60,505 nt of DNA from Patescibacteria group bacterium (lineage in GTDB: Bacteria; Patescibacteriota; Microgenomatia; Levybacterales; UBA12049): assembly GCA_035457005.1 (NCBI GenBank), contig DATICB010000017.1, forward strand, positions 1 to 60,505, in the 5' to 3' direction. The position numbers were made by a program, and so were the translations under genes. Positions within the stretch are counted from its first letter, which is position 1, and every line of letters begins with the position of its first letter. This document shows, piece after piece, positions 32,994 to 59,926 of this stretch. The notes beneath the pieces were generated by a model. It was not told the DNA's origin. It saw only the letters and a program-made list of their open reading frames with translations, and searched no databases.

Positions 32994-32996
32994 TCT

Positions 32997-33067
32997 GGGC
33001 CATTAGCATAGTGGTAGTGCGCTACATTCGCATTGTAGATACAGCGGTCCGATTCCGCTATGGTCCA
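32997..33067 (+). tRNA. tRNA-Ala (anticodon CGC) with an atypical T-loop
   Basis: Acceptor GGGCCAT/ATGGTCC with G3:U70. Anticodon loop TTCGCAT. T-stem AGCGG/CCGCT, but the T-loop is TCCGATT, with C at the usual U55 position. Confidence 0.7.
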
Positions 33068-33071
33068 CCCA

Positions 33072-33144
33072 GGGCCGGTAGCTTAGTTGGTAGAGCGCCT
33101 CCATGGCATGGAGGAGGTCGAGAGTTCAAGTCTCTTCCGGTCCA
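33072..33144 (+). tRNA. tRNA-Ala (anticodon GGC)
   Basis: Acceptor GGGCCGG/CCGGTCC with G3:U70. Anticodon loop ATGGCAT. T-loop TTCAAGT. It lies 4 nt after the previous tRNA. Confidence 0.9.
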
Positions 33145-33184
33145 CAATTTAGCCTCAGAGTTATCAGTCAGTACGCATTGTCAG

Positions 33185-39300: not shown

Positions 39301-42300
39301 TCCTGCTCCGATTGTGTTACATCGATAGGAAGCTCCATCACTCCAGCCAAAGAAATAGGTATTACCTGTTCCAGTTGATTCTAGCATATACCCACCACTT
39401 GTATTGATATTATGTTTACTAAAAATATCTGCGCTGGTAGGCTGTACTGCTCCTGGCTTGACCCATAAATCAGCTGACATGGCATTACTAAAATTAATAC
39501 TGCTGCTATTGGCAATACTGATACTGTCCCCAACCCCATCAAAATAGACACCATTGTTAAACATGCCATTAGCAATAATTCCGTTGGAAAGTGTCCCTGT
39601 ATTGCCATTACCCGATGTATCACTTTCTGTTGTGCCGGAGGTAATATCCATGCTGTATGCCGCCTGAAGCCCACTAATGGAGCGAACAAATGTATTCGCG
39701 GCAGATGAAACACTGGTGGACAGAGACAAATTGCCATAGTAGATATAGATATTTTTCTTTTCTCCTGGTGGGAGCTGGGGGACTTTTACCCAGAAAATAG
39801 TTGATGACGTATTGCAGGTACCAGGCTCCATCCAGTAATTAAGATTGGTTGTACCATCAGAATCAGTAAAGCGCACGCCAGTACAATCATTTCTCATCTT
39901 GCCAACAGAGATAGGAGCCGTTGTATTGATTGATACTTTCACTTGGTAGTCTGCATTAGCAGAACTAGATGCTGACTGGGTATTATCTACGGTAATGCGA
40001 GCACGATATGATTCACCATAACTTGATGCTATCCAGGAAGTTGGATCATAGAGCCCTGACTTAATATCTCCAGCAACAGTGAGCAGGGCAGAAGTAGAGG
40101 CAACAGATGTTGTCCCAAGCGCTACATTGCCAGTTGTCTGTTGCACATAAAAGCTGGGGAGCATTTGGGTCACAGTATTTTGCTCTTGGCCTAATGATGC
40201 AATAGTTGGCTCTGTTGATACATATGCTCGTGCTTCTTCTGTATTGGCATTACTTGCAATAGTATAGCCATAATTTTGACCCCCATTGGAATACAAATCA
40301 GTAATCTGAGATGAAGATAAGGCGATATTATAGACACGGGGCTCATCTAGGGTGCCGGTAAAGAAACCTGCGCGTGCACCTGCGTTGTAGGGGGGTGCTG
40401 CGCCAATATCCAAGACGCCTGTTGGCGCACTGCCAACAGTGATCGTTGCCGGTGTACCTGTTGAGGCACCATCAACATAGAGCGTCATGGTTGTTCCGGA
40501 AATGGTCATGACAGCGTAGTGCCAATTACCATCAGCATAGGTTGTGGCAGTACTATCAACTATATAGTCTGTTGGGTTATTAAAGTACTCTGCTTCTACT
40601 TTTCCACTTGTTAGGAAGTTAAGACCAAAAAGGGTGCGAGTCCCAATTTGGGTATCTTTTCTAATAAGAGTTTCCTTAGAGCTTGGGTTAGATGATTTCT
40701 TAAACCAAATAGCAACTGATAATGGTTGGGTGATACGCAGGTTGCTACTGTCATTGATTTCTACATAGTCGCTATTGCCATCAAATGTTCGAGCATTACC
40801 AAAAATACCGGTTGCAACAGTTGTACCCGATTCAGAAGCGACGTTATTGCCATTCCCTGAGAAATCATTCATTGGCATGTAGGTTGGCTCATCAAATCTC
40901 CAGGCACCCTGTACTCCAGAAATTTCCCGGACAAACGTACTTGTGGAAGAGGATGCTGCACTTGCGCCCGCGTTGCCATAGTACATATACATCATTTTGT
41001 TGGGACCTGGAATAAGGGGTACCTTTACCCAGAACGTCGTTGCAGTGGTATTGCAGGAATTGGGCTCAATCCAGTAATTAAGGTTAGTCGACCCATCTGA
41101 GTCGGTAAATCGTACATCATTACAACTTGAAAGCACCTTTCCAGAAGAAACAAGACCTGTGGTATCCATAACAACTCGCACCTGGTAATTGATAAGCTGC
41201 TGCCCATAGGTATTGTTGATTGAAATTTGTCTTCTGTAGCTATAGCCATCCACACCCCAATTTGTGGCATCTTTGCCAACACGTAAATCTCCATAGACAT
41301 CAAGCTTGTATTGAGCAGAGGTGGTGCCGATACCAGCAGAGCCATTAATATCCATGGCCTGTCCGGATGCTGCAGGATCGATAAAGTAATTGGTGTTATC
41401 CAAATCCTGGAAAGACCTTGCACGCAAGATACCCGAGTTGGTGAGTTGAAGCTCAGTTGCTCCGGAGGCAGAAGCAGTGAGGATATCTGCTACATTGTTC
41501 TGTTGATTGACTATGAGTGCAGAATTCCCTAAGCCGTCTTTCTCAATATCCAAAGGCCCAAGGGGGGAAGTAGTGCCAATGCCAACATTGCCATTACTGA
41601 AGTAATGAGGGCCAGATCCTGTGACATGCAATCCGGTTGCGCTTATGGTAAATGCGGAAGCATCTCCTGTTGCGAAATAATTATTATTAATGCCAAATTT
41701 AATTTGTCCTCCCGATGGGGCGTTCAAAAAGGTATAGGTTCCGTCACCGAGTAAAGAGTAATTATTACACGTGAGATTATTTGTCCCAAAAGAGATACCA
41801 CTATATCCGCCCCCACAATTTGGAGATCCAATATAGGTATATGAGCTAGATTCTCCAAGGACTTGTAACTGTTCTTGAGGACTGTTTGTTCCAATGCCAA
41901 TATTCCCGGAACTTGCTATATATAGTGCAGGATTTCCTTCACCGCTATTGCCACCAACAGAATTATAAAACCCAAGGGTTGCATTGTTGAGTAAGTCAAC
42001 TTTTGTATTTGCCGCTGTGAAGGAAAGGTTGCCGGAAGTGGTTGCTGTCCCTGCATAGGTTCCAGAACCAAAAATCTGGAATTTTGCAGAGCTTGTGGCT
42101 AAACCGCCAACTGCCAAATCATTCGTAAGATTGGCAGGAGCTAAAACTCCAAGGCTGCTCAACTGCCAGAACCCCGCGATACCGCCACTGCTTGGAGTAA
42201 CAATTTGTCTCACATAGAGCGTATCCCATTCTTGTCCTCCTGCTGTCGGATCAGATCCCAAATTGTACGTATCGTTTGTTTTTGGAATAAGACTTGATGC

Positions 42301-45300
42301 AAAAAATCCAGTTGCGGTAATGTCATCGCTAGTTGCATCGCCAAGATTTACTTTTCCATTCAAAGTTGTTGTTCCTGTCACTGTCAGTGCATTATTCACT
42401 GTTGTCGTGCCGCTTGTTCCGCCTATGTTTACATTTGTTGTCAAGGCATTATTAGCGAGATTAAGTGTTGTTGCAGCAGACCCAAAGTTAATGGTTGTTG
42501 CTGTGGTATTGAGAAGATTGACACTTGTCTGATTGGTTGCAATGGTTGCTGCATTTAAATTGATAGTTGATCCTGTGCCACCGTTGAGCGCAGTAAGTGT
42601 AATATTTCCTGTTTGACTGTCACCGATGGTAAGCCCTTGATTATTTCGTGTTGCGATAACATTTGCCGTATCGCCGTTGAACGTCAGTGTTCCGGTTGTT
42701 GTCGCATTGCCAGTATTGGCAAACACCTGGAATTTAGCAGATGCTGTACCAGTGCCACCAATTGCCAAATCATTCCAGTTATTCGTTGGATACAAGACAT
42801 TACTTGCTAAGGTCCAGTAGCCACCAACACCGCCTGTTGCAGGAAGATAGACATTACTTGCTGTGACTGCGCCAGTCAGGTAAAGATTTTTCCAAGACAG
42901 CGCAACTGAGCCAAGGTCATCTGTATTGGTTATGCTTGGTATGATATCGGTGCTGACACGGCCAGTAAAACCAATCGTATTGCCTGTACCGCTTCCCAAG
43001 ACGACATTGCCCCTAATGGTATTTGTTCCTGCTGCATTACCAATACCAATGCCGCCTGTTGCACCAGATCCGATATTGATATTAGTTGCGTTAGAATCAA
43101 AAAGACTTGCTGTACCGGCAGTTGTTGTGATATTGCCACCATTCACAGCAACATTTCCTGAGGTAGTAAAATTGCCTGTTTGGGTTATGTCGCCGTTGTT
43201 AGCAATAGAGAGTACAGTTCCAAGACCAGAATCTCCTCCAACAGATGTTTTGACATTTAAGACGCTGCCGTTGAGTAATGCAACCTGCGTTGTGGTTCCT
43301 CTGAAAGAAAGTCCCGCAGAAGAGGTTGCCGTTCCTGCGGTGTTGACGCCAAGTGTTGTTGCAAATACTTGCCATGGTGTTGCAGACCCTGTTGCATTGC
43401 CACCAACTGCCAAATCATTCCATGCATTCACAGGAGACAATACATTGTTAGTCAGCTGCCAGAATCCTGAGACGCCTCCTGAAACAGGGGAGATGAAAGT
43501 GTTTGCATAGACTGTGCCATAGTAGTGAGTTGCAGAGCCAAGATTGATTGATCCATTGCCTGTTGGAACAAGATCGGTTGCCAAAGACCCAGTGGTTGTA
43601 ATCGTGTTGGTTGAGCTTGTTCCCAAAGTGACATCACCTTTCAAATTAATTGGTGTATTCGATGCGCCAATATTCAATGCTGTGGTTGCACCTGCGCCAA
43701 AGTTAATTGTTGTTGCTGTGCTGTTTAATAAATTAAAAGTGGTCTGATTGGTTGAGAATGTGCCGCCATTGTCTGCGATATTGCCTGTGGTAGTGAGTGC
43801 ATTGTTGACAGTTGTTGTTCCAGAGCTATTGCCAATATTTAAGCTCGTTGCTGTTGGGAAGGCAGTAAAGGATGTTCCACTGCTGTCGAGCGTTGTTCCA
43901 TTTATTGTGACTATGCCGTTGCCATTTTGTGGTTTTAAGGTAATATTGCCTGTTGTGTCGCCACCAATGGTAAGGCCTGCGTTTCGTGCTGTTTGGAGTG
44001 AGCCTGTGGCTGTTAGGTAGGTGGCATTGCCATTTAACCCGGAGCTTACCGATGCAACTGGTGTTCCGGATCCTGTCATATTGAGTACTGCAAATTTTGC
44101 AGAAGTAGTTGCCGAGCCACCAATGAAGAAATCAAACGTTTCATTGATTGGGTAGAGCGCGCCATTTGTCATAGTCCACCAATTACTTGCTGCAGAAGAG
44201 CAATCACTCCAGCTTGGTGCAGATGATGCATTAGAAATAAGACATTGGCCACCTGACCCAACAGATGTGAATGCGTATCGTGTTCCATTTGAGTAGGCGA
44301 CACTTCCCGCAGAGCCTAATGTTGTTGCATTGGTGCCGCCATTAGCAATTGGCAAGATAGAACTACCAACATCTGCTGTTAAATCAATTGCGTTAAATGT
44401 TGGTGCGCCTGCACCGTTGCCGCGAAGGAAAGTATGTGCTGCGCCTTGTGCTGTTTCGGCAACAGTGCCATTGGTATCAGATAAGTACAAAATACCATCT
44501 GCTGTGGTATATTTCTTAGCGATAAGTGTGCCATCATTTTGAATGGTAAATTTGGTGACACCTGACGCCGATGCAGTAAAGATGTCGCCGTTGGGTCCTT
44601 GCTTATTGACGACCAGTGCCGAATTTCCGCCTGCGTTTGGCTGCACAGTAATATTCCCTAAACCGCTATTTTGTCCAAGAATAATATTACCTGTTCCAGA
44701 AGACAAAAGCGTCAGGTCTGCATTGCTGGTAGTCTGAATTGTTGAGGAAGAACCGTTGCCAAGCGTTACGGTCGTGCCGTTCACTGTGAAATTTCCTCCG
44801 GTTGTTGTTAGTCCTGTTCCCGTTGTAAAGCTTGATGCACCGGCAAAGGTAACGCTGCTTCCTGAGATTCCATTCAGCGGACTCAGCGTTATATTTCCTG
44901 TGGTTGTTCCACCAATGGTTAATCCCTGGTTTCTTGTGGTCTGAATAAGACTGCCTGTACCATCAAACGTCAGTGTTCCTGCTGTTGTTGCATTGCCAGT
45001 ATTTCCAAACACCTGGAATTTAGCACTACTTGTTGCTGTCCCGCCAATTGCCAGATCATCAGCAATATTACTTGGAGAGATTATTCCTGAATTCCTCTGC
45101 CAGAAACCGTCATACTGTGCTGTTGCACTTAAAATAAGCCCATTTGCGTAGACATTTCTCCAGGCGAGCGCATTCGAACCAAGATCATATAGATTATTTG
45201 CATCAGGACCGACACTGCCTGCAAGTTGCAGTCTAAATGATCCTGGATTAGTTGTGCCAATGCCAACATTATTGCCGTTAAGAATAATGTTGCCGGTTTG

Positions 45301-48300
45301 ATTATCACCAAGAGTCAGCCCTTGATTATTCCTTGCAGCAATAAGGTTGGTTGCTGCAGTACCGCTGGTAAACGTCAGTGTTCCTGCTGTTGTTGCATTA
45401 CCAGAATTGGCGAAAATTTGAAATTTAGCGCTACCGGTTGCTGTGCCACCAATTGCGACATCGTCGGTTATATTGAGCGGTGCCAAAACACCTAAATTTC
45501 TCTGCCATGTTTGTGTAATTGGCTGTCCATTCTGGTAAATATTATTCGCATAAATATTATTCCACTGAAGAGCTGCCGAGCCTAAGTCATAGGTATTGGT
45601 TGTGTAGGGGAGAATATTGGACGAAACATTGCTGTTAAAACTAATATTGCCTGTAGTGTTGCCGCCCAATGTAAGCGTTTCATTTCTCACTGTCTGAATC
45701 GTTCCGTCTGCTGCAAAATACATGCCAGTGCCATTCAATCCTGATGATACCGATGCAGTTGGTGTGCCATTAGCGATATTGAGTACTGCAAATTTAGCAG
45801 ATGTTGTACTGGTTGCTCCTACTAATACATCGTTTGTTATATTTGTTGGAGATAATGCGCCATTGTTTAACTGCCAGAATCCAAGATACTGTGAAGAAGC
45901 CGAGCCAAAGAGATTGGTAATATAGGCACTACCATAGTAATTGGCTGGAGATCCTAAATTAATACTTGTTGATTGGGGAATAAGACTTCCTGAGAAAACG
46001 CCAACTGGGTTAATGGTATTGGCGCTCGTTGCTCCCAAAACTGCATTGTTGTTGGCAGTGAAAACACCTGTTGCTGTGAGTGCGTTATTCACTGTTGTCG
46101 TGCCGCTTGTTCCGCCTATGTTTACATTTGTTGTCAAGGCATTATTAGCGAGATTGAGTGTTGTTGCTGCACTGCCAAAGTTAATTGTTGTTGCTGTGGT
46201 ATTGAGTAAATTGACACTTGTCTGATTGGTTGCCAGTGTTGCTGCATTTAAATTGATAGTTGATCCTGTGCCACCGTTTAAGGGTTGGAGCGTTATATTT
46301 CCGGTCGTATTTCCACCAATGGTGAGTCCTTGATTTCTCACTGTCTGAATTGTTCCGTCTGCTGCAAAATACATGCCAGTTCCGCTTAATCCTGAAGAAA
46401 CAGATGCTGTTGGATTTCCAGAGCCAGTCATGTTGAGGACAGCAAATTTAGCAGTTGTTGTTGCGGTGCCGCCAGCTAAGATGTCGTCAGTAATATTAGC
46501 AGGGGAGAGTGTGCCAAGATTTCTTTGCCAGAATCCTGCAGTATTGCCGGATGTAATAATGTTTTTGACATACAAATTATTCCACTCCAAACTTGCAGAG
46601 CCTAAATTATAAGTGTCAGCATCTGCGGGAATAAGATCGGAGTTGATAAATCCACTGACCGTGAGCGATCCTGTCCCATTGTTTGGTTTTAAGATAATAC
46701 CACCTGTCGTGTCTCCACCAAGAGTAAGTGGTTGGTTGCTCGTTGTTTGGATTTGAGACCCTGTTCCGGTAAACGTCAGTGTTCCGGCAGTTGTTGCATT
46801 GCCAGTATTCCCAAAGACTTGGAATTTAGCACTATTGGTAGACGTTCCGCCAATTGCAAAATCATTTGTTATATTTGTTGGGCTTAAGACGCCGCTGTTT
46901 AATTGCCAGAATCCATCATACTGTGCATTCGGACCTAAAAGAAGACCATTTGCATAGATATTTCTCCAGCGAAGTGGTGTTGTTCCATCTCCCAAATCAA
47001 AAGTATTATCAGTTGTTGGGACAAGACTGCTACCAAATCTTCCTGTTGTGACAATAGTATCAGCCGTTGCATTACCCAAATTAACATCTCCATTAAGATT
47101 TGTTGTATTATTTGCTGTGAAAATACCTGTTGCTGTGAGTGCGCTATTCACTGTTGTTGTGCCACCAGTCACGCCAAATCCTAATGTTGTCGCATTGGCG
47201 GTAAATGCATTAAATGTTGATGCAGTTGTTTGAAGAGCAGAACCATTCACAGTAACTGTTCCATTACCACTGTTTGGACTTAAAGTAATACCACCTGTCG
47301 TGTCTCCACCAAGAGTAAGTGGTTGGTTACTCGTTGTTTGGATTTGAGACCCTGTTCCGGTAAAGGTTAAATTGCCAGCAGTTGTTGCGTTACCAGAATT
47401 GGCGAAGACCTGGAATTTCGCAGTTGCTGTTGCTGTCCCGCCAATTGCTAAATCGTCTGCAATATTCGCAGGGGAGACAACGCCGAGATTCCTCTGCCAG
47501 AATCCAACCGTGGTTCCTGTTGAGATAACATTTTTTACATAGATGTTGTTCCACTCCAAACTTGCAGAGCCAAGATCATACGTATCTGTTGTTCGTGGGC
47601 CAACATTGCCTGCCACTTCGAGAGCAAAATCGCTCGTTGTTGTTGTGCCAATGCCAACATTTCCTGTTGAATCAACATAGAGTCCTGTTGTTCCTTTCGG
47701 TGATAATTGAACTGATCCTGTTGTTGCAGAGCCTATGGTGAGCGGGCGATTGTTGGTGGTTGCAATGACGCCATTACTATTCAGTGTTATATTCCCAGAA
47801 ATGGATGCAGTTGGTGTGCCAGACCCTGGAGCATTATTTAAGAACGAAAAATTAGCAGAAGAACTACTCGTACCGCCAAACAAAACATCTAATGTTGTAT
47901 TAACAGGATAGAGAATTCCATTCCCACTATCCAATGTCCAATAATTTGTTGCACCGGCAGCGGTTGAACAACTTGTCCAGCTTGGCGCACCAGATCCTGC
48001 AGAGACAAGACATTGATTTGTCGAGCCTACCGCCGTGAATGCATAATTGGTGCCGTTGGAATAGGCAACACTTCCGGCTAACCCAATGGTGTTGGTGTTC
48101 GTACCGCCATTGGCAATTGGCAAGATGCCAGTAACTTCTGAAGCTAGGTTGACACTGCTTGATGATAAAACGCCTCCTGTTGCGTGGACAACGCCTGTCC
48201 CAAGGCCACCAATAGTGACTGTTCCTGCTCCATTGAGTGGGTTCAATGTGATGTTTCCTGTTGTAGTTCCGCCAATTGTCAGTCCTTGATTTTTCGTTGT

Positions 48301-51300
48301 CTGAATAAGACTGCCTGTACCATCAAACGTCAGTGTTCCTGCTGTTGTCGCATTCCCAGTATTTCCAAACACCTGGAATTTGGCAGTACTGGTAGACGTC
48401 CCGCCAATTGCTAAATCATCGGTAATATTACTTGGAGAAATGATTCCGGAATTTCTCTGCCAGAATCCTGAAATAGTACCTCCGGAAATAATGTTGTTAA
48501 CATATAAATTATTCCACTGCAAACTTGCAGAACCCAAATCATACGTATTGGTTACTTGGGGAATGAGGTTAGAGTTAATATGGCCATTAACAGTAATATA
48601 TCCGTTGCCATTAAGTGGACTCAAGGTAATGTTGCCAGTACTGCTGCCACCGATCGTGAGGCCTTGGTTATTGGTTGTTTGAATCTGACCGACACTATTC
48701 AGCGTTATATTTCCAGAAATGGATGCTGTTGGTGTCCCAGATCCTGGCGCATTGTTAAGAAACGAAAAATTAGCAGACGAGCTACTTGTACCGCCAAACA
48801 AAACATCCAATGTGGTATTCACGGGGTAGAGACTCCCGTTGGCAAGTGTCCAGTAATTAGTGACGCCTGCTGCTGTAGAACAACTACTCCATGTTGGTGA
48901 TCCTGCCGCGCCTGAAAGAAGACATTGTCCTGCTGTTCCTACCGCAGTGAATGCATAGTTGGTGCCGTTGGAATACGCAACACTTCCAGCAGAGCCGATG
49001 CTTCCAGTATTGGTTCCGCCATTAGCAATTGGTAAAATACCAGTGATCTCGCTGGTTAGGCTAACATTAGAGGAGGAAAGCAGACCTCCTGTTGAGTGAA
49101 CAACACCTGTACCAAGTCCAGCAATCGTGACAGTCCCTGTGCCGTTAAGTGGTTTTAAGACAATATTTCCAGTCGTGTCGCCACCAATAGTCAGACCCTG
49201 ATTGTTGGTTGTCTGAATAAGTCCTGCGCTGTTGAGTGTAATATTTCCGGAAATAGATGCAGTTGGTGTACCTGCCGCATTATTCAAGAAAGCAAATTTA
49301 GCAGATGAAGATGAGTCACCGCCAAATAAGACATCGAGTGTTGTATTGATTGGGTAGAGGGTGCCATTCGCAAGTGTCCAAAAATTAGTTCCCGAAGCGC
49401 CGCTGCCACAACTGCCCCAAGTAGGTGTTCCACCGCCTGCAGACGTAAGACACTGCCCGGCAGAGCCTGCTGCTGTTTGGAAGAAAAGTCCAGTCCCATC
49501 TGCATAGAAGATTCCGCCTGCGGTGTTGTAGTTGGATGCAGTAATTGTGCCAGTATTACCCAGCGTGAATTTGCTTACGCCGGCTGCAGATGCAGTGAAT
49601 AATGCTCCTGCGCCGTCTTGATTAATGGTGACTGCAGGAATACCAGAATTAGTAGCCAGGACAGCAAAGGTGTCATCAACCTCAACAGAGCCTGTCGCTG
49701 ATGAAATATTATTATTTTGTGTTGAATTGATGAGCGGCTTTTGCAAGTCAATAAATCCTTGGCCGTCGGGCGCGATTGTTATGTTGCCATTGGTCCCTGC
49801 GTTTGTATTTAAGACAAGCGTATCGCCGCTCAAGGTGAATGCACCACCAACTGTTTGGAATGTGCTCGCTGCGCCAATAGACAAATTGCCAGCGGAGTTA
49901 AGCGCCAAAACAACATTGCTTGTTCCTGCGCCGGATTGGGTAATCGGGGGCAAGCCTTGAAGCGTTTCCGCATTAGTCGCGTAGGCAACGGTTGCCAGCT
50001 GCTGTCTTGGTGTTAGCTCTGGAGTCTGAGCAACGGTAATGCCTAAGAAAAGATTGGCATTATTAGCAAAAAGAGACTGTTGAATTGCACTTCCTTGTCC
50101 CAATAACACTGAAAAAACACCATTGGCATCAGGAGTAACATTATCGACCTCTTGCCACAAAAGAGCTGAACCGGTTGCTGTAGCGTTGGTGTAAATACCA
50201 AAACGTAAATTGGTCGAGGTTGTTATTGGATTGCTGCTACTATCTGTCAGCCTGCCTTGGAAGGAAAGAATCCTGTTTGGTTGTGCTGCTGCTAGAATAT
50301 GCTGACCATTTTGTGGGCGTGATGCAAAATTGTTGTAAAACCCAAATCCAATGACTGTCATGACAATCATGAGGATTGCCCAGTTAAAATAATGCGCAAT
50401 TGCATAACTATGATATCTTTTGTACCAGTTGGGTCGTGTATATCGTGCATGATGAATAAGTGTTTCAAGCCATGGCAACTGATTCAGTATTCTTTGTGCT
50501 GGAGCGAAAACTGACTTTGAAATATTTTTCACAGGCATAAATTGCGCAAGCCTCTTCTGCTCGTCTGTCAGCTTGTTGGTGAAAAGAGGCTTACCCCTGA
50601 GTGTCCAGATTGCTTTATGACCATGAACAACTAAGTGGGTGAGTGGAGTTATGAAAACACTGTCAAATACAAAATTGATTCCTTTTGATATCTTTTGAGC
50701 AAGTCTAAAAGGAGGAAAAGGAGAATAAGTGTGAGATTTTGTGGGTAGCGCAGTGGGTTTTGCTACACCTTCTCCATCGTCGGTAGTTAGGACATGGTCT
50801 TTTTGTTGTCTCTCTGGCGATTCAAAAGTGTTAGTGCTAGGAATATTTGTAACATCAATTGGATTGACGGGAAGACCTTTTTGATTTTGCAAAAGATTTT
50901 GACTATTTGCCCAGGCAACGTACTTACGGAGTGAGGAGAGCTTGCGGTTAATTGATGAGTTGGAAAAAGCATGTTCAGCCACAAGTGCATCTCTGTAACT
51001 TGCAAGCAGGGCATTGTCCAAGCTCTCTAAAACAGTTGCTTCTGGATTCTGTTGTTGCACCGAAGACTGTGCCCATTTAAAAAATTGTTTCAAGTCAATG
51101 ATATAGTTTTTGATAGTTAGATTGCTTGCGTTATAGACATAAAGAAAATCTTTGAATTGTTTGAGCTGGTATGGATCTTCTATATGCTGGCTAGATGTCA
51201 CCTGATCAAGTGGACTCGCGCTTACGTAGCCTTGTAATTTAAGGAAATGAAAGAATTTTCTCAAGGAAGAGACATGCCTATCAAGCGATCTTTCTGAGAG

Positions 51301-51495
51301 TTGTTGATTTTTTTCTTGTCTAAAAAGGGCGATGTGCTCTGAGGAAATACTTTTAGGATCAAACGATGTCTGGTATTTCTCTTCAAACCACACGATGAAG
51401 TGTTTCACGTCCAGGCTGTAGTTTTTCACAGTCACTTTCGATGGAGCTGGTTTGAGCGAAAATAAATAATTTTTAAATTTGATTAAATATTCCAT
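36337..51495 (-). CDS. giant (5,052 aa) membrane-anchored, tail-fibre-like surface protein
   Basis: Uninterrupted 15,159-nt ORF. The domain order was read from the translation and is given in the sub-features below. Confidence 0.9.
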   Translation of the reverse strand: MEYLIKFKNYLFSLKPAPSKVTVKNYSLDVKHFIVWFEEKYQTSFDPKSISSEHIALFRQEKNQQLSERSLDRHVSSLRKFFHFLKLQGYVSASPLDQVTSSQHIEDPYQLKQFKDFLYVYNASNLTIKNYIIDLKQFFKWAQSSVQQQNPEATVLESLDNALLASYRDALVAEHAFSNSSINRKLSSLRKYVAWANSQNLLQNQKGLPVNPIDVTNIPSTNTFESPERQQKDHVLTTDDGEGVAKPTALPTKSHTYSPFPPFRLAQKISKGINFVFDSVFITPLTHLVVHGHKAIWTLRGKPLFTNKLTDEQKRLAQFMPVKNISKSVFAPAQRILNQLPWLETLIHHARYTRPNWYKRYHSYAIAHYFNWAILMIVMTVIGFGFYNNFASRPQNGQHILAAAQPNRILSFQGRLTDSSSNPITTSTNLRFGIYTNATATGSALLWQEVDNVTPDANGVFSVLLGQGSAIQQSLFANNANLFLGITVAQTPELTPRQQLATVAYATNAETLQGLPPITQSGAGTSNVVLALNSAGNLSIGAASTFQTVGGAFTLSGDTLVLNTNAGTNGNITIAPDGQGFIDLQKPLINSTQNNNISSATGSVEVDDTFAVLATNSGIPAVTINQDGAGALFTASAAGVSKFTLGNTGTITASNYNTAGGIFYADGTGLFFQTAAGSAGQCLTSAGGGTPTWGSCGSGASGTNFWTLANGTLYPINTTLDVLFGGDSSSSAKFAFLNNAAGTPTASISGNITLNSAGLIQTTNNQGLTIGGDTTGNIVLKPLNGTGTVTIAGLGTGVVHSTGGLLSSSNVSLTSEITGILPIANGGTNTGSIGSAGSVAYSNGTNYAFTAVGTAGQCLLSGAAGSPTWSSCSTAAGVTNYWTLANGSLYPVNTTLDVLFGGTSSSSANFSFLNNAPGSGTPTASISGNITLNSVGQIQTTNNQGLTIGGSSTGNITLSPLNGNGYITVNGHINSNLIPQVTNTYDLGSASLQWNNLYVNNIISGGTISGFWQRNSGIISPSNITDDLAIGGTSTSTAKFQVFGNTGNATTAGTLTFDGTGSLIQTTKNQGLTIGGTTTGNITLNPLNGAGTVTIGGLGTGVVHATGGVLSSSSVNLASEVTGILPIANGGTNTNTIGLAGSVAYSNGTNYAFTAVGSTNQCLVSAGSGAPSWTSCSTAAGATNYWTLDSGNGILYPVNTTLDVLFGGTSSSSANFSFLNNAPGSGTPTASISGNITLNSNGVIATTNNRPLTIGSATTGSVQLSPKGTTGLYVDSTGNVGIGTTTTSDFALEVAGNVGPRTTDTYDLGSASLEWNNIYVKNVISTGTTVGFWQRNLGVVSPANIADDLAIGGTATATAKFQVFANSGNATTAGNLTFTGTGSQIQTTSNQPLTLGGDTTGGITLSPNSGNGTVTVNGSALQTTASTFNAFTANATTLGFGVTGGTTTVNSALTATGIFTANNTTNLNGDVNLGNATADTIVTTGRFGSSLVPTTDNTFDLGDGTTPLRWRNIYANGLLLGPNAQYDGFWQLNSGVLSPTNITNDFAIGGTSTNSAKFQVFGNTGNATTAGTLTFTGTGSQIQTTSNQPLTLGGDTTGGIILKPNNGTGSLTVSGFINSDLIPADADTYNLGSASLEWNNLYVKNIITSGNTAGFWQRNLGTLSPANITDDILAGGTATTTAKFAVLNMTGSGNPTASVSSGLSGTGMYFAADGTIQTVRNQGLTIGGNTTGNITLQPLNGGTGSTINLNAATLATNQTSVNLLNTTATTINFGSAATTLNLANNALTTNVNIGGTSGTTTVNNALTATGVFTANNNAVLGATSANTINPVGVFSGSLIPQSTSINLGSPANYYGSAYITNLFGSASSQYLGFWQLNNGALSPTNITNDVLVGATSTTSAKFAVLNIANGTPTASVSSGLNGTGMYFAADGTIQTVRNETLTLGGNTTGNISFNSNVSSNILPYTTNTYDLGSAALQWNNIYANNIYQNGQPITQTWQRNLGVLAPLNITDDVAIGGTATGSAKFQIFANSGNATTAGTLTFTSGTAATNLIAARNNQGLTLGDNQTGNIILNGNNVGIGTTNPGSFRLQLAGSVGPDANNLYDLGSNALAWRNVYANGLILSATAQYDGFWQRNSGIISPSNIADDLAIGGTATSSAKFQVFGNTGNATTAGTLTFDGTGSLIQTTRNQGLTIGGTTTGNITLSPLNGISGSSVTFAGASSFTTGTGLTTTGGNFTVNGTTVTLGNGSSSTIQTTSNADLTLLSSGTGNIILGQNSGLGNITVQPNAGGNSALVVNKQGPNGDIFTASASGVTKFTIQNDGTLIAKKYTTADGILYLSDTNGTVAETAQGAAHTFLRGNGAGAPTFNAIDLTADVGSSILPIANGGTNATTLGSAGSVAYSNGTRYAFTSVGSGGQCLISNASSAPSWSDCSSAASNWWTMTNGALYPINETFDFFIGGSATTSAKFAVLNMTGSGTPVASVSSGLNGNATYLTATGSLQTARNAGLTIGGDTTGNITLKPQNGNGIVTINGTTLDSSGTSFTAFPTATSLNIGNSSGTTTVNNALTTTGNIADNGGTFSTNQTTFNLLNSTATTINFGAGATTALNIGASNTPINLKGDVTLGTSSTNTITTTGSLATDLVPTGNGSINLGSATHYYGTVYANTFISPVSGGVSGFWQLTNNVLSPVNAWNDLAVGGNATGSATPWQVFATTLGVNTAGTATSSAGLSFRGTTTQVALLNGSVLNVKTSVGGDSGLGTVLSIANNGDITQTGNFTTSGNVAVNGGNITTTAGTASLFDSNATNINIGSGATGGIGIGNAAGTNTIRGNVVLGSGTGNTIGFTGRVSTDIIPSITNTDDLGSVALSWKNLYLTGAVTASNVYLPATGGVGGYWTLASNVLYPTNNWNDLAIGGTGTASAKFQVFANTGNATTTGTLTFNGDTANVIATRNNQGLTIGDSQTGNITLTALNGGTGSTINLNAATIATNQTSVNLLNTTATTINFGSAATTLNLANNALTTNVNIGGTSGTTTVNNALTVTGTTTLNGKVNLGDATSDDITATGFFASSLIPKTNDTYNLGSDPTAGGQEWDTLYVRQIVTPSSGGIAGFWQLSSLGVLAPANLTNDLAVGGLATSSAKFQIFGSGTYAGTATTSGNLSFTAANTKVDLLNNATLGFYNSVGGNSGEGNPALYIASSGNIGIGTNSPQEQLQVLGESSSYTYIGSPNCGGGYSGISFGTNNLTCNNYSLLGDGTYTFLNAPSGGQIKFGINNNYFATGDASAFTISATGLHVTGSGPHYFSNGNVGIGTTSPLGPLDIEKDGLGNSALIVNQQNNVADILTASASGATELQLTNSGILRARSFQDLDNTNYFIDPAASGQAMDINGSAGIGTTSAQYKLDVYGDLRVGKDATNWGVDGYSYRRQISINNTYGQQLINYQVRVVMDTTGLVSSGKVLSSCNDVRFTDSDGSTNLNYWIEPNSCNTTATTFWVKVPLIPGPNKMMYMYYGNAGASAASSSTSTFVREISGVQGAWRFDEPTYMPMNDFSGNGNNVASESGTTVATGIFGNARTFDGNSDYVEINDSSNLRITQPLSVAIWFKKSSNPSSKETLIRKDTQIGTRTLFGLNFLTSGKVEAEYFNNPTDYIVDSTATTYADGNWHYAVMTISGTTMTLYVDGASTGTPATITVGSAPTGVLDIGAAPPYNAGARAGFFTGTLDEPRVYNIALSSSQITDLYSNGGQNYGYTIASNANTEEARAYVSTEPTIASLGQEQNTVTQMLPSFYVQQTTGNVALGTTSVASTSALLTVAGDIKSGLYDPTSWIASSYGESYRARITVDNTQSASSSANADYQVKVSINTTAPISVGKMRNDCTGVRFTDSDGTTNLNYWMEPGTCNTSSTIFWVKVPQLPPGEKKNIYIYYGNLSLSTSVSSAANTFVRSISGLQAAYSMDITSGTTESDTSGNGNTGTLSNGIIANGMFNNGVYFDGVGDSISIANSSSINFSNAMSADLWVKPGAVQPTSADIFSKHNINTSGGYMLESTGTGNTYFFGWSDGASYRCNTIGAGTDKWSNGGIILTPDVWQHVTVTKSGTSAIAYVNGVQVSTCTGGSSTIGSSSSQSLKIGQSAGSNAHFFRGYIDEVHFYDAALSAAEVTDLANPTGTPHNGYATTNSANTIYVRSFTNPEPVVSVDTEQDPSQVDPTLYVNNTFGRVGIGTANPTSTLDIVSNQAANNSLSALNIDTVNDGVFLTTWKRAGTSLGAIFANNNGPLVIEAFPNATLGTTGNISLNPGGGNVGIGTTTPNATLDVNSGNIRVGHSSAGGIIIMDGTPGGGHQYEWYNDAAGTSGQLGLYDRTYGNYDVIWGATGQMTVTSGITGGNFALVVHNDAVSNSGDGIRIQAGANTSDTAFFLQYLDGDGTSLGTVQGNGGGVTYTNTSDIRLKTDIAPTNMGLDQLLQIPVVNFHYKTEPTGPLQTGFIAQWLYNVFPNAVSVPTNPDDRYGDVNPQDPWGVDYGRITPLIVKAVQDLNTKVDVATTSANSQLAMLSGKLTNLDLSGTGDIIMNQNATVSADFTIPHYYMLSDIFGNPIHQIAALSEAVIGNLRVGSLQAQQTITNSLSIATANVTIAGQSLSDYIIGVVQTAISNGSLSQFNNGTVNSPIASIDQLHTGIVSPLGQDNSIALSLGNSRIEVRNGASGSAVATIDNIGNATFSGTLTSQNLAVNGDATVSGTLHANRIEANTIAGLQAVVSTLSAQNITNVTNIYFATPSGAPTGENIATGLGGSSSTNSGLLNPYLGYTNLASYSGFLAYVPNLDATTGMFEQGLMSLGTTTLSDTTITGQLAIGSQLILADNGVNVLGATFDIQPLRQGGVNFEGGLLAIDTDGNLTVNGNAVFSKTLAANIISPISNDRNLTVKLGNNPTATGAALATSNLSVQNASGSGIFTIDQLGNVIASGAATIGKLNLQVAEPALAVSNTELVATGSAGTADVKAHQTEITIDNKLVTSKSLIYITPVGQSTITPYLIRQVDKTSFTVGIPLQQTTNTTFNWLIVN
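37905..38195 (-). other. peptidase S74-type intramolecular chaperone (auto-cleaving) domain, internal
   Basis: TNTSDIRLKTDIAPTNMGLDQLLQIPVVNFHYK..GFIAQWLYNVFPNAV..VDYGRITPLIVKAVQDLNTKV. The conserved Ser is residue 4436 (codon 38188-38190). Confidence 0.7.
39030..41255 (-). other. two consecutive DUF2341-like + LamG (concanavalin-like) cassettes
   Basis: Cassette 1: YRRQISINN..VRFTDSDGSTNLNYWIEP..FWVKVP..YMYYGN, followed by FDGNSDYVEI..GNWHYAVMT..LYVDG..LDEPRVYN. The second copy is YRARITVDN..YIYYGN followed by a LamG region. Confidence 0.65.
41500..50200 (-). repeat. at least 14 tandem tail-fibre-like modules
   Basis: The recurring unit is DLGSxxLxWxNxY .. GFWQ(R/L)N..SPxNIxDDLAIGGT..AKFQVFxNxGNATTAGTLTF. 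LPIANGGTN and vGIGTtxP..LxV motifs are interspersed. Confidence 0.8.
50329..50406 (-). other. single clear transmembrane helix (aa 364-389)
   Basis: YAIAHYFNWAILMIVMTVIGFGFYNN. Confidence 0.75.
50887..51495 (-). other. two tandem tyrosine-recombinase-type N-terminal SAM-like/core-binding domains (aa ~3-95 and ~108-203)
   Basis: Domain 1: FKNYLFSL..VTVKNYSLDVKHFIVWF..SERSLDRHVSSLRKFFHFLKLQGY. Domain 2: LKQFKDFLYV..LTIKNYIIDLKQFFKWA..SINRKLSSLRKYVAWA. No catalytic R-H-R-Y domain follows. Confidence 0.6.
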
Positions 51496-56279: not shown

Positions 56280-56309
56280 TTGACAAAAAGAATGGTTATT
56301 TTTTATACT
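56280..56309 (+). promoter_or_regulatory. sigma70-like promoter (TTGACA-18-TATACT), ATG 9 nt downstream
   Basis: TTGACA 56280-56285, TATACT 56304-56309, ATG 56319. Confidence 0.55.
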
Positions 56310-56318
56310 GCCTGAGAT

Positions 56319-56531
56319 ATGGGATTTACACCAACAAGACCCCCAAGAGAAGTAGAGGTTCGAAGAGTTCCTAGGGGGAGTTCACTTTCTGGCCTGGGTG
56401 GTCCAGCAGATAATCCATATAGAAGACCTGCTACGCCAAAAGATAGTCAAGATGCAATCAGAGAGAGTCATCAAGAAGGGCAGGTAAAGAAAGCTCAACG
56501 CCGCAGAAATGAACAAGCTAATCAATCTTAA
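56319..56531 (+). CDS. small basic Pro/Arg-rich protein (70 aa)
   Basis: Translation begins MGFTPTRPPREVEVRRVPRG and continues through DNPYRRPATPKD. Confidence 0.45.
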   Translation: MGFTPTRPPREVEVRRVPRGSSLSGLGGPADNPYRRPATPKDSQDAIRESHQEGQVKKAQRRRNEQANQS

Positions 56532-56534
56532 ATT

Positions 56535-56789
56535 ATGGGTCACTATCGAGACCGAGATTCAAGATACCCCAGTCAAGTAAGAAATCCCTTTTCAAAAGAG
56601 CCCGCAATACGACAGGTTCCTCGGGGAGCAGATACTGATCCCTTTGGTACGAAAGAAGCAACCCCAGGAAGACAGCCAACACCTGCAGATGTAGCAGCAA
56701 ATAAAGCAACTCAAAGAGCGGAGATAATACAAAGAAGAAACGCTGGGCGTCTTGGAAAGGATCCACATCCTGAAGAATGGGATGTGTAA
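56535..56789 (+). CDS. small basic Pro/Arg-rich protein (84 aa), likely paralogue of 56319
   Basis: It shares the RQVPRG, TDPF and ATP motifs. It starts 3 nt after the previous stop. Confidence 0.45.
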   Translation: MGHYRDRDSRYPSQVRNPFSKEPAIRQVPRGADTDPFGTKEATPGRQPTPADVAANKATQRAEIIQRRNAGRLGKDPHPEEWDV

Positions 56790-56939
56790 CTTTCTTGTAT
56801 TTCTTTTTGTTGTTTAGTACAATCGCTGCATGAATACAAATCTTTCCAAACTTCTTCTTGTTTCCTGGTAGGGGAGAAGTTTGTATGTGTACAAATTCTC
56901 CCAGAAATGGGAGTTTTTTATTCGCTAAAATTTTAGATT

Positions 56940-57152
56940 ATGACAGAAGAAGAACAACCAAAAAGGAAAAGAGGCAGTAGGGCGCGTGAAGAAAGAAGAA
57001 AATCAGTACGTCAAAAAAACGGCGATCGTCCCCCGAGTAGAAATCCGAAGGGAATATTGCACCATCTCCATGCAGAACTGCAAAGGGAACATGGTCGCGG
57101 GTATGAGGGAGTTAGAAGGGGAAAGGGAAATAAGATAAGAAATCCCTATTAA
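56940..57152 (+). CDS. small basic protein (70 aa), MTEEEQPKRKRG family
   Basis: It is homologous along its full length to 57215..57430. The first 12 codons differ only at synonymous third positions. Confidence 0.6.
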   Translation: MTEEEQPKRKRGSRAREERRKSVRQKNGDRPPSRNPKGILHHLHAELQREHGRGYEGVRRGKGNKIRNPY

Positions 57153-57214
57153 ACAAACCGTCTAAACCGGTAGTGTGTTTATTTTGAATAAAAAATACAT
57201 TTTGGTATATACTT

Positions 57215-57430
57215 ATGACAGAAGAAGAACAACCGAAAAGAAAAAGAGGTGCAAAAGCCCACAAGCAAGAAAGAAGAGACGCTCGTAAAAAGGCGGGATC
57301 TGCACCAAATGGTCCAAGTAGTAATCCAAAACTTCAGTTACACTTTGACCATCATGAGCAGCAAGAGCGCCATAGGGGAGGAACAAGTCCGGTGCGAAGA
57401 AAGCCTCCTCATAAAAGAAAGAGGTTTTAA
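57215..57430 (+). CDS. small basic protein (71 aa), MTEEEQPKRKRG family
   Basis: See 56940..57152. It ends 3 nt before the leuS ATG. Confidence 0.6.
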   Translation: MTEEEQPKRKRGAKAHKQERRDARKKAGSAPNGPSSNPKLQLHFDHHEQQERHRGGTSPVRRKPPHKRKRF

Positions 57431-57433
57431 TAT

Positions 57434-59926
57434 ATGAAAACAACAGAATGGAAAAATCCCCACAACACTAAAGTTACGTGGGGCAAGTATTTTCCACAAG
57501 ATATAGAGAAAAAGTGGCAAGAAGTATGGAAAGAAGCCGGACTGTATAAGTTCAAATCCCAAATCCCAAGCTCCAAATTCCAAAAATATTACACATTAGT
57601 TGAGCTTCCATACCCATCAGGAGACTTGCATATTGGTCACTGGTTTACCTTTATTGCACCAGATGTGCTTTCACGATTCAAGCGCATGCAAGGCTACAAT
57701 GTTTTCTTTCCCATGGGATACGATGCGTTTGGTTTGCCAGCAGAAAACGCAGCAATCAAGCGTGGTATTCATCCACAAGACTGGACATTGAAAAATATTG
57801 AGACCATGACGGCCCAATTCGAGACTATGGGCACAATGATTGATTGGGATCACGTCACAGTCACGTGTTTGCCCGAATATTACAAATGGAATCAGTGGAT
57901 CTTTATTAAGATGTTTGAAAAAGGCATTGCGTACAGAGGCAAAACACTTTCCAATTGGTGCCCAACAGATCAAACTGTTTTGGCTAACGAGCATGTAGAA
58001 AATGGCAAATGTTGGCGGTGTGGGTCGGTAGTTGTTCAGAAAGAAGTAGAACAGTGGTTTTTACGCATTACAGACTATGCTGAAGAGCTTTTGTGGAACA
58101 GAGAGGGCAATGGTGTCGATTGGCCAAAAAGTGTCCAGGTAGCGCAAAATGATTGGATAGGAAAAAGTGAAGGGCTTGAAATAAGTTATCCAATTGAGGG
58201 TTCTGAAGAGAAGGTGACCATATTTACTAGCCGCCCCGATACAAATTTTGGCGCAACATTTATAGCGCTTGCTCCAGAAAATCCGCTGGTTACAATAATT
58301 ACCAGGCCGGAGCGCAAAGAAGAAGTTGAGAAATATGTCAAAATAGCTTCAGAGAAAACAGAATTGGAGCGCAAAGAAGAAGGTAAAGAAAAGTCAGGTG
58401 CATTTACCGGAGCGTATGCTATTAATCATTTAACTGGAGAAAAAATGCCTATTTGGGTATCTGACTTTGTTTTAATGAACTTTGGAACAGGTGCACTTGT
58501 TGGTGTTCCTGCTCACGATCTCAGAGACTTTGATTTTGCCCATAAATTCAATCTAAACATCAAGCGAGTTGTTGTTGGCAAAGATGGCGACAAATCGCCA
58601 ATTACAAAGCGTGAACAGGTTCAGGAAGAAGATGGGATAATGATTAATTCAGATTTCTTAGATGGAATTGATATTCATGAGGCTACAGGAAAGATTATGG
58701 ACTATATTGTCGAAAAAGGCTGGGGCAAGAAGGTAACTATGTATCATCTACATGATTGGTCTGTGAGTCGCCAAAGGTATTGGGGAACACCAGTGCCAAT
58801 GATACACTGCGATACAGATGGAATAGTTCCGGTACCTTTAGATCAACTACCAGTAACGCTTCCCTACGATGTTGATTATCAGCCAAAAGGCAAGCCGCCT
58901 TTGGCCTCCAATGATGAATGGATGAAAGTGACATGTCCTAAATGCGGCAAAGATGCTCGACGTGATGCAGAAACATTAGATACATTTTTTGATAGTTCGT
59001 GGTATTACTACCGATATGTCGATCCATCCTTCAGAGATGGACCTTTTGATCCTACGGAAGTCAAAAAACTCATGCCTTTGGATATTTACTTTGGTGGAGG
59101 CGAACATACCTTGGGACACACCTTGTACGCACGATTTTTTACCAAATTCTTTAAAGATTTAGGTATGGTTAACTTTGATGAGTTTGCGCTTAAAAGAGTA
59201 CAGCATGGGATCGTACTCGGCACAGATGGGAATAAGATGAGTAAGAGCAAAGGGAATGTGATTAATCCTGATGACGTGGTAAAAGAATTTGGCACTGACG
59301 CAGTGCGGGTATATCTTTCATTTATGATGCCATACAATGCCACAGGGCCGTGGTCTGTCAGCTCAATGTATGGGATGTTTCGATTCTTAAAACGCGTCTG
59401 GGATTTGTACCCACGGGTTACTGCAGGAGAGTTAACGCGAGAAGATAAATTTCAGATGCACACGACCATTAAAAAAGTCGGCGACGATATTGCAGAGACA
59501 AAAAATAACACAGCTGTTGCTGCCATGATGAAGTGGCTCAATTACTTAGATGCGAAAGAGCAAATTTGGGAGGAAGAATTCAAGAATTTTCTGATTATCT
59601 TGTCACCATTTGCTCCGCATATCACAGAAGAGCTTTGGCAGTTAAACAAGTTGTCTGATAGCGAGGCTGGTGATGAGGCATTTTCATCAATTCACCAGGA
59701 AAAGTGGCCTAGCCATGATAATAGTTTGATAGTTTCTGATACAGTTACCGTTGCTGTACAAATCAATGGAAAATTGCGAGATACTCTTGTCATTGTGAGC
59801 GAAGCGAAGCAATCTGATGTCGAGGAGGTTGCGAAGCAATCTGAAAAAGTCAAAGTTCATCTAGAAGGAAAGACAGTGAAAAAAGTAATTTACGTGCCCG
59901 GGAAAATCCTCAATTTTGTGATATAA
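57434..59926 (+). CDS. leuS: leucine--tRNA ligase
   Basis: HIGH motif (GDLHIGHW), KMSKS, and CP1 editing domain blocks. Confidence 0.95.
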   Translation: MKTTEWKNPHNTKVTWGKYFPQDIEKKWQEVWKEAGLYKFKSQIPSSKFQKYYTLVELPYPSGDLHIGHWFTFIAPDVLSRFKRMQGYNVFFPMGYDAFGLPAENAAIKRGIHPQDWTLKNIETMTAQFETMGTMIDWDHVTVTCLPEYYKWNQWIFIKMFEKGIAYRGKTLSNWCPTDQTVLANEHVENGKCWRCGSVVVQKEVEQWFLRITDYAEELLWNREGNGVDWPKSVQVAQNDWIGKSEGLEISYPIEGSEEKVTIFTSRPDTNFGATFIALAPENPLVTIITRPERKEEVEKYVKIASEKTELERKEEGKEKSGAFTGAYAINHLTGEKMPIWVSDFVLMNFGTGALVGVPAHDLRDFDFAHKFNLNIKRVVVGKDGDKSPITKREQVQEEDGIMINSDFLDGIDIHEATGKIMDYIVEKGWGKKVTMYHLHDWSVSRQRYWGTPVPMIHCDTDGIVPVPLDQLPVTLPYDVDYQPKGKPPLASNDEWMKVTCPKCGKDARRDAETLDTFFDSSWYYYRYVDPSFRDGPFDPTEVKKLMPLDIYFGGGEHTLGHTLYARFFTKFFKDLGMVNFDEFALKRVQHGIVLGTDGNKMSKSKGNVINPDDVVKEFGTDAVRVYLSFMMPYNATGPWSVSSMYGMFRFLKRVWDLYPRVTAGELTREDKFQMHTTIKKVGDDIAETKNNTAVAAMMKWLNYLDAKEQIWEEEFKNFLIILSPFAPHITEELWQLNKLSDSEAGDEAFSSIHQEKWPSHDNSLIVSDTVTVAVQINGKLRDTLVIVSEAKQSDVEEVAKQSEKVKVHLEGKTVKKVIYVPGKILNFVI
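57554..57581 (+). repeat. AAATCCC-family heptamer array in leuS
   Basis: The units are aaatccc aaatccc aagctcc aaattcc, encoding KSQIPSSKFQ. It is about 29/32 identical to the array at 2347. Confidence 0.9.

Follow-up and report, generated by a model that had tools for sequence, protein, structure and literature searches.

A Predicted Leucine Leader-Peptide Attenuator among Orphan Small-Protein Genes Upstream of leuS in a Patescibacteria Bacterium

Introduction

Why should a leucyl-tRNA synthetase gene be preceded by a row of small genes encoding very basic orphan proteins? This question is raised by a 60,505-nt stretch of DNA from a Patescibacteria group bacterium (contig DATICB010000017.1 of assembly GCA_035457005.1; "the window" denotes this whole stretch), in which four small open reading frames (ORFs), ORF1 to ORF4, precede leuS on the forward strand. 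Our answer is that the region probably consists of two transcription units, of which the second (ORF3, ORF4, and leuS) is controlled by a leucine leader-peptide attenuator at 56795–56919, in the spacer between ORF2 and ORF3, and that the small-protein genes are real and lineage restricted. ORF3 and ORF4 would then adjoin leuS because of this attenuator.

An original prediction, made from the sequence alone, had described the four ORFs as a cluster of genuine genes of no recognized family, with ORF3 and ORF4 under constraint. That account is supported in part and is incomplete, having overlooked the attenuator. The ORFs, their coding constraint, the size of their family, the alternative RNA structures, and the conservation of these structures in one relative are all computed results, which we present below together with the explanations that compete for them.

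Results

A Leucine Leader ORF and Mutually Exclusive Hairpins Upstream of ORF3

The 150-nt spacer between ORF2 and ORF3 holds, on the forward strand, a promoter-like site, a leader ORF, mutually exclusive hairpins, and a terminator with its T-run. The promoter-like site P2 (TTGTAT-17-TACAAT, 56795–56823) lies 6 nt upstream of the ATG of a 13-codon ORF (56830–56871; ATG AAT ACA AAT CTT TCC AAA CTT CTT CTT GTT TCC TGG TAG) that encodes the leader peptide MNTNLSKLLLVSW. Four of the 13 codons, all CTT and three of them consecutive, specify Leu, upstream of the gene for the leucine-charging enzyme. Region 1 (56847–56859), which contains the Leu codons, pairs with region 2 (56871–56883) over 13 bp to form hairpin 1:2 (56847–56883); alternatively, 56872–56885 pairs with 56890–56902 as the antiterminator 2:3 (56872–56902), which takes 5 of the 6 nt of the 5′ arm of the intrinsic terminator 3:4 (56898–56919). 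The latter is CTCCCA-GAAA-TGGGAG followed by TTTTTT, with the stem at 56898–56913 plus T6. The leader stop codon directly abuts region 2. As modeled, the geometry of these regions is that of the classical 1:2/2:3/3:4 attenuator.

Folding of the free RNA to its minimum free energy yields the 13-bp hairpin 1:2 together with the terminator at −26 kcal/mol (z = −2.5). In thermodynamic modeling, the window antiterminator reaches −15.0 kcal/mol vs. −9.5 kcal/mol for the terminator, and constraint folds of the window RNA show that the antiterminator arises once the 5′ part is removed or blocked. A ribosome footprint modeled on the Leu run in such folds leads to the antiterminator, and one modeled on the stop codon leads to the terminator alone; both outcomes were obtained for the window and for L086, a metagenome contig that is the closest relative found (LeuS 71% identical).

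L086 carries an orthologous leader, with a small basic ORF between it and leuS. Its promoter is the consensus TTGACA-17-TATACT, which aligns with P2 and is followed, after 6 nt, by ATGAATACAAA, the leader start common to both loci; the leader ORF comprises 18 codons, six of them Leu, and encodes MNTKSLGLLTALLLTEEC. The L086 terminator, CCCCGC-ACAT-GCGGGG plus T5, differs from that of the window on both sides in three of its six pairs, and the L086 stems in general differ from the window stems with complementarity kept, i.e., by compensatory changes. Strain variants retain the leader start, Leu run, and stop; in those from runs X5 and X7, the last leader codons are altered and 1–2 nt are deleted beside the stop, with the TAG in the same place. 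Thus the position of the leader stop relative to region 2 is maintained, in L086 and in the strain variants, while the stems change.

Such maintenance of mini-ORF, Leu run, and stop position would be hard to understand if 56795–56919 were a stand-alone small RNA (sRNA) gene, or the terminator of an ORF1–ORF2 operon, with the Leu codons incidental and leuS not regulated by the element. The anatomy alone would fit this proposal, since a promoter and a terminator ~90 nt apart also match an sRNA gene, the terminator lies 110 nt past the ORF2 stop, and weak Rfam sRNA matches overlap the element. The only RNA run, the X24 rhizosphere metatranscriptome, contains low-depth contigs over parts of ORF1, ORF2, the attenuator to the start of ORF3, and leuS, one of which extends from the ORF2 end through the terminator and likewise speaks for this proposal. 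On the other hand, the exact classical geometry of the three mutually exclusive pairings and the agreement between the regulated amino acid and the synthetase downstream argue for attenuation, as does the rarity of the arrangement: among 159 mini-ORFs with three consecutive Leu codons in the 60.5-kb window, this leader alone precedes a perfect terminator. We therefore regard the sRNA or operon-terminator explanation as unlikely and leuS as, most plausibly, the gene served by a leucine attenuator.

An Rfam scan of the region gave no Leu_leader or T-box match at E ≤ 10 and no T-box at the gathering score, and, for want of an Rfam match, we discarded the idea that a T-box or another riboswitch precedes leuS. 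The best match was Phe_leader (RF01859), itself a family of leader-peptide attenuators, at 29.1 bits (17.6 bits for L086). Its AUGAA start, codon-run hairpin, and terminator with U-run all align with the window element; however, the in-frame codons of the window are Leu CUU rather than Phe UUU/UUC. Because 29.1 bits is below the gathering score of 55, this match is an architectural resemblance and not membership.

A scan for Leu-rich mini-ORFs upstream of leuS across all loci found no other clear attenuator. In SAR202/Dehalococcoidia (L038, L047, L052, and L129), a conserved 12-codon mini-ORF, M(V/D)L(Q/R)(R/Q)(R/H)LLLE(M/I)P, lies ~85 nt upstream of leuS; it has three consecutive Leu codons and an overlapping conserved hairpin, with no clear U-run terminator, and may represent a different Leu-sensing leader in Chloroflexota.

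Several observations weigh against the attenuator and its control of leuS. The L086 antiterminator is only ~1.5 kcal/mol more stable than the terminator (−14.1 vs. −12.6 kcal/mol). L086 is also the single independent orthologue, too few sequences for covariation statistics, and five more distant Patescibacteria leuS loci (L001, L002, L087, L089, and L090) lack the attenuator. P2 is a weak promoter match, with 3 of 6 positions in the −35 hexamer, and falls below the promoter-scan threshold. The X24 contig begins ahead of P2 and crosses the terminator into ORF3, as would be expected of read-through from ORF2 or of carried-over DNA rather than of a transcript starting cleanly at 56830. Approximately 520 nt and two ORFs separate the terminator from leuS; moreover, since −10-like boxes precede ORF3, ORF4, and the small L086 ORF, leuS may also be transcribed independently of the attenuator. 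Finally, the structural model of the proteins encoded downstream is of low confidence (see below).

Promoter-Like Sites and Predicted Leaderless Starts

The strong promoter that the original prediction placed ahead of ORF1 is present as P1, TTGACA-18-TATACT, at 56280–56309 (11 of 12 positions match). Its −10 box ends 9 nt ahead of the ORF1 ATG, predicting a very short or absent leader, and the 6-nt distance from P2 to its ATG predicts a leaderless leader-peptide mRNA, if transcription starts where the promoter predicts. These distances are in keeping with the rest of the window. Shine–Dalgarno (SD) motifs are almost absent across its 29 long genes, and −10-like boxes (TATACT, TATAAT, TAGTAT) lie 3–17 nt upstream of the start codons of many window genes, a pattern that suggests that leaderless or very short-leader mRNAs are widespread in the source genome. 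Since almost all window genes are without an SD motif, its absence before the small ORFs is normal here.

The sole SD-like motif of the region is GAGGT, in the last codons of ORF4 (57215–57430), 8 nt upstream of the ATG of leuS (57434–59926; leucyl-tRNA synthetase, 830 aa). Because ORF4 ends 3 nt before leuS, as originally stated, and holds this motif, translational coupling of the two genes is suggested. At the other end of the region, a terminator-like hairpin followed by a T-rich tail lies within the last codons of ORF2 (56764–56786), and its core, CATCC/GGATG, is retained in the allele of strain contig L085. The four ORFs are thus adjacent, as the word cluster implied, but they do not form one unit, since this hairpin, a second promoter, and the attenuator lie between the two pairs.

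Four Small, Basic, Arg-Rich Coding Genes

All four ORFs begin with ATG and occupy the coordinates originally claimed: ORF1, 56319–56531 (70 aa, pI 11.1); ORF2, 56535–56789 (84 aa); ORF3, 56940–57152 (70 aa, pI 11.3); and ORF4 (71 aa, pI 11.4). Their products have a net charge of +3 to +13, isoelectric points of 9.7–11.4, and grand averages of hydropathicity (GRAVY) of −1.3 to −2.1. Combined, they contain ~16% Arg and 2.7% Leu, compared with 3.8% Arg, 7.0% Lys, and 10.3% Leu in the other window genes; they are indeed Arg rich and basic, although the Lys-rich bulk proteome with which they had been contrasted is only mildly so at 7.0% Lys. Searches of Pfam, NCBIfam, PHROGs, PADLOC, and PDB sequences found no match above the cut-off for any of them, in agreement with the earlier statement that no family is recognized. 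The best score to a curated family, GMT-wHTH for ORF1 at 13.6 bits vs. a cut-off of 27, is noise.

Secreted effectors had been proposed among the possible roles. Judged from the N-termini (MGFTPTRPPRE, MGHYRDRDSRY, and MTEEEQPKRKRG) and the GRAVY values, none of the proteins has the hydrophobic N-terminal segment of a Sec or Tat signal: each contains just 6–12 hydrophobic residues, and the N-termini are charged. Because ORF1–ORF4 have no hydrophobic N-terminus, Sec- or Tat-type secretion is unlikely, and this part of the original prediction is not supported.

Could the four frames have arisen by chance in purine-rich, T-poor noncoding DNA, for instance in a long leuS leader, and remain untranslated? 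The forward strand of the interval is A rich and T poor (A 0.37, T 0.21), a bias that favors open frames, and off-frame ORFs of 40–62 codons are also present; the missing SD motifs and family matches point the same way. However, when the interval was shuffled with its composition preserved, ATG ORFs of ≥70 codons numbered 0.147 per shuffle on average, and not one of 2,000 shuffles reached the four that here occupy one strand within 1.1 kb. Codon usage, assessed by log-likelihood ratio, favors the annotated frame for all four ORFs, the lack of SD motifs is the norm in the source genome, and the divergence among ORF3, ORF4, and the homologue P0003 described below, which has the same length in an unrelated context, is biased toward synonymous changes with gaps in multiples of three. 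Chance frames are therefore highly improbable, and the claim of real coding genes is supported. Among strains from at least eight metagenomes, indels either spare the ORFs or keep to multiples of three; in diverged alleles they fall in intergenic DNA.

ORF3 and ORF4 Belong to an Orphan Family of Three Proteins

ORF3 and ORF4 share the N-terminus MTEEEQPKRKRG, and their first 12 codons differ solely by the synonymous pairs CCA/CCG, AGG/AGA, and GGC/GGT. Over 62 residues they are 53% identical by BLASTP (E = 2e-16), and their alignment score exceeds that of composition-preserving shuffles at z = 16. A profile of the two, searched against 1.84 billion representative proteins, returned three matches, namely ORF3, ORF4, and P0003, a third homologue of 70 aa (E = 3e-6). 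Three short public contigs, from the two samples that also yielded strain contigs L081 and L085, carry P0003 in a context that differs from the leuS locus: it stands alone there, near genes for flavokinase and EamA, with TTGAGA-17-TATAAT and then 7 nt before its ATG. Further searching did not enlarge the family. Homologue searches in k-mer indexes with ORF4, ORF2, and ORF1 yielded nothing beyond the queries themselves and their strain variants, a metagenome scan with the ORF3/ORF4/P0003 alignment gave no match, and a hidden Markov model (HMM) of the family found no additional member among all six-frame ORFs of 165 fetched loci. By these searches, ORF3, ORF4, and P0003 are an extremely restricted orphan family. 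An absence of homologues with preserved frames had been named as what would speak against the genes; at a distance this is nearly what is found, with three members in 1.84 billion proteins, yet the frames are kept in every strain variant and in P0003.

Across the three members, the proportion of nonsynonymous differences (pN) is 0.35–0.44 and that of synonymous differences (pS) is 0.68–0.89, with pS saturated. The codons of invariant residues differ at 15 of 23 positions, the nucleotide alignment contains gaps solely of 3, 6, 12, and 15 nt, and third positions are the most variable. In strain contig L081, from soil/groundwater metagenomes, ORF3 and ORF4 are unchanged. A minority contig of run X3 is a mosaic in which sequence from upstream of ORF3 leads into an ORF4-like N-terminal half and then into the ORF3 C-terminal half, with junctions at 56934/57214 and 57319/57039; from this mosaic it appears that gene conversion or recombination between the tandem paralogues occurs in natural populations. 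Since gene conversion can explain some of the close match between the first 36 nt of the paralogues, the first 12 codons, on which the claim of purifying selection had leaned, are open to a second explanation. Selection is better evidenced, as the alignments indicate, by P0003 and by the turnover of synonymous codons at residues that do not vary, and the claim itself holds at the level of amino-acid constraint (pN < pS and codon turnover). By the same measures, ORF3 and ORF4 are real coding genes, tandemly duplicated, with constrained amino-acid sequences.

AlphaFold2 (AF2), run on the three-sequence alignment, places two helices in ORF3, at residues 13–26 and 36–55, with low confidence (pLDDT 66, pTM 0.27). 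ORF3 and ORF4 probably encode very basic, Leu-poor, helical or disordered proteins of ~70 aa. Small basic proteins associated with ribosomes or nucleic acids include bS21 and bL34, which are of like size (~45–70 aa), very high isoelectric point, Arg/Lys-rich composition, and little hydrophobic core; unlike them, ORF1–ORF4 have no detectable similarity to any Pfam, NCBIfam, or PDB entry. Because of the charge, the size, the missing hydrophobic core, and the predicted co-expression with a synthetase, nonspecific binding of RNA, tRNA, or the ribosome by ORF3 and ORF4 may be advanced as the likeliest role, though with rather low confidence. A more specific proposal, which we consider quite unlikely, is that ORF3, ORF4, and P0003 are lineage-specific translation helpers that bind tRNA(Leu), LeuRS, or the ribosome and are induced through the attenuator, with ORF1 and ORF2 forming a separate, fast-evolving interaction module.

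ORF1, ORF2, and an Allelic Cassette

ORF1 and ORF2 had been described as a second pair. Their similarity is real, but paralogy is weakly indicated (BLASTP E = 2e-4; shuffle z = 4.8, p ~0.001). Only TAA-ATT lies between them, so that ORF2 begins 3 nt past the ORF1 stop, and since they share a reading frame across this gap they may represent a single gene that has been split, or a repeat internal to one. Relative to the strain variant P0006 on L085, ORF1 has three synonymous changes and one nonsynonymous change, and it has a weak homologue in L086 (1601–1936, z = 5.9); one low-depth contig, roughly 9% diverged, lacks 2 nt at the ORF1 stop. ORF1 and ORF2 are thus supported as genes by strain variants, codon usage, and the weak homologue in a relative, although less strongly than ORF3 and ORF4.

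ORF2 itself is divided. Codons 1–39 differ from L085 by four synonymous and no nonsynonymous changes, and codons 40–84 (56652–56786) by 32 nt changes and ~17 amino acids with no indels. The divergence of this cassette is ~24% over 135 nt, its flanks differ by 1% or less, and window and L085 show a single mismatch in 254 intergenic nt, the changes being clustered elsewhere, a uniformity of the intergenic DNA that also counts in favor of the attenuator. A third allele is 18 nt shorter with the frame kept, giving at least three alleles in public metagenomes. Codons 40–84 form an allelic hypervariable cassette, for which the exchange of old alleles by recombination fits better than local relaxation of constraint. 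A diversity-generating retroelement was considered for the ORF2 C-terminus and rejected: the changes affect all codon positions and all bases, and the window contains no second copy of 56640–56790, a reverse transcriptase not having been specifically searched for.

A Variable Region Next to leuS

Window LeuS is 71% identical to that of L086, 60% to L087, 57% to L001, and 54% to that of a Daviesbacteria metagenome-assembled genome. Synteny with L086, L087, and L001 covers a divergently oriented gene for a 212-aa membrane protein and the genes past it. The spacer between this gene and leuS ranges from 78 bp in L001 through 182 bp in L087 and 1.2 kb in the window to ~3 kb in L086. Neither the attenuator nor the small ORFs occur at the more distant leuS loci of Patescibacteria. 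The L086 spacer contains a 3-kb island (1044–4009) with seven other orphan ORFs, including the one resembling ORF1 (z = 5.9). Two small glycine-zipper-like membrane proteins are encoded there on the minus strand, and the L086 leuS frame is seemingly interrupted after ~98 codons, perhaps through a frameshift or faulty assembly.

In the slot between attenuator and leuS, L086 carries an 89-aa, very basic ORF that ends 4 nt before leuS. It shares the stretches E-x-QP...KRRG..AR..RR and H..H..L..EHG.G with ORF3 and ORF4; its similarity to them reaches a shuffle p of ~0.01 and an hhalign probability of 3%, and the family HMM does not match it. This ORF is a possible divergent orthologue, occupying the position of ORF3 and ORF4 as their analogue.

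The varying spacer and the hypervariable ORF2 cassette might also be expected of an island that is mobile or was gained by horizontal transfer, for example the remnant of a phage or defense system, with genes that serve the element and not the cell. Yet we found no matches to integrases, transposases, repeats, phage proteins (PHROGs), or defense proteins (PADLOC), the G+C content equals that of the surroundings, promoters and codon usage are in the style of the host genome, and part of the region is linked to leuS through the attenuator; a mobile island is thus very unlikely. Because spacer length and content vary, and because attenuator and small ORFs are absent at distant loci, the comparison instead identifies the region as a gene nursery, young and rapidly changing, within a single lineage of Patescibacteria.

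Variation extends into leuS. Positions 57457–57590 (codons ~8–52) are polymorphic among strains, with 5-, 25-, and 29-nt indels summing to ~30 nt, and an N-terminal low-complexity stretch, QIPSSKFQ in the window, is replaced by QADSGQARMTNPKSQ in L081. The LeuS segment aaatcccaaatcccaagctccaaattcc attracts contigs from many unrelated organisms.

Elsewhere in the window, the 23S rRNA gene (16015–19322) is 3,308 nt long compared with a model of 2,925 positions, corresponding to ~380 nt of insertions; rRNA-gene insertions are said to be common in bacteria of the Candidate Phyla Radiation (CPR). A single ORF on the reverse strand (36337–51495) encodes a giant protein of 5,052 aa. Three tRNA-Ala genes (15566–15643, 32996–33071, and 33072–33145) have the anticodons TGC, CGC, and GGC; two of them directly abut, and no other tRNA gene lies within the 60 kb.

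Discussion

Taken together, these results lead us to propose the following working scheme, in which we infer where transcription starts, that attenuation takes place, that leuS is co-transcribed, and what the proteins do. In a first unit, P1 would drive ORF1 and ORF2, with a transcript that may end at the hairpin in the ORF2 3′ end. In a second, P2 would start transcription at or beside the leader ATG. When Leu-tRNA(Leu) is plentiful, the ribosome would reach the UAG and, because this codon abuts region 2, mask that region, leaving regions 3 and 4 to form the terminator, so that transcription would halt at 56919. With charged tRNA(Leu) in short supply, the ribosome would stall on the CUU run and cover region 1; region 2 could then pair with region 3, the terminator would be blocked, and RNA polymerase would continue into ORF3, ORF4, and leuS. 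With ORF4 and leuS translationally coupled, the ORF3 and ORF4 proteins would be made together with LeuRS when leucine charging is limiting.

The predicted element belongs to a well-known regulatory kind. In Escherichia coli, leader attenuators include leuL of the leu operon and pheM, the leader of pheST. The window shares with classical attenuators a short leader ORF with a run of cognate codons, overlapping 1:2, 2:3, and 3:4 hairpins, and a terminator of GC stem plus U-run ahead of the regulated gene. For Streptomyces, classical attenuators have been predicted ahead of leuS and trpS (Seliverstov et al. 2005, PMC1262725). As with pheST and Streptomyces leuS, the target here would be an aminoacyl-tRNA synthetase. 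No sequence relationship links the window to these systems, however, and its distinctive features are a Patescibacteria host, a leader predicted to be leaderless, and two small-protein genes between terminator and leuS. In mycobacteria, leaderless poly-Cys short ORFs act as Cys-responsive attenuators (bioRxiv 10.1101/834739); like these, the window leader is a regulatory ORF at the 5′ end of a transcript that would sense one amino acid on behalf of downstream operon genes. It differs in that the amino acid is Leu rather than Cys, an explicit terminator/antiterminator pair is predicted, and the phylum is another. The physiological logic is also that of the T-box. The leuS T-box of Firmicutes yields more synthetase when tRNA(Leu) is uncharged, through a choice between terminator and antiterminator; unlike the window leader, a T-box senses the tRNA directly, without translation.

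Cis-regulatory mechanisms in Patescibacteria (CPR) are almost undescribed, and a limited literature search found no paper connecting these bacteria with leader-peptide attenuation. Were the attenuator to go unconfirmed, an ordinary set of lineage-specific hypothetical small proteins would remain. The locus also holds a lesson for annotation, in that a 13-codon regulatory ORF lay hidden in what appeared to be a spacer between orphan genes. If real, the attenuator gives two orphan small proteins an expression context, leucine limitation, which makes their function testable; on the more specific and quite unlikely proposal given above, ORF3, ORF4, and P0003 would, with LeuRS, constitute a starvation module peculiar to an amino-acid-auxotrophic CPR episymbiont. 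More broadly, if the scheme is true, reduced, SD-poor, amino-acid-auxotrophic bacteria would match the level of a synthetase to the charging of its tRNA by ribosome-mediated attenuation.

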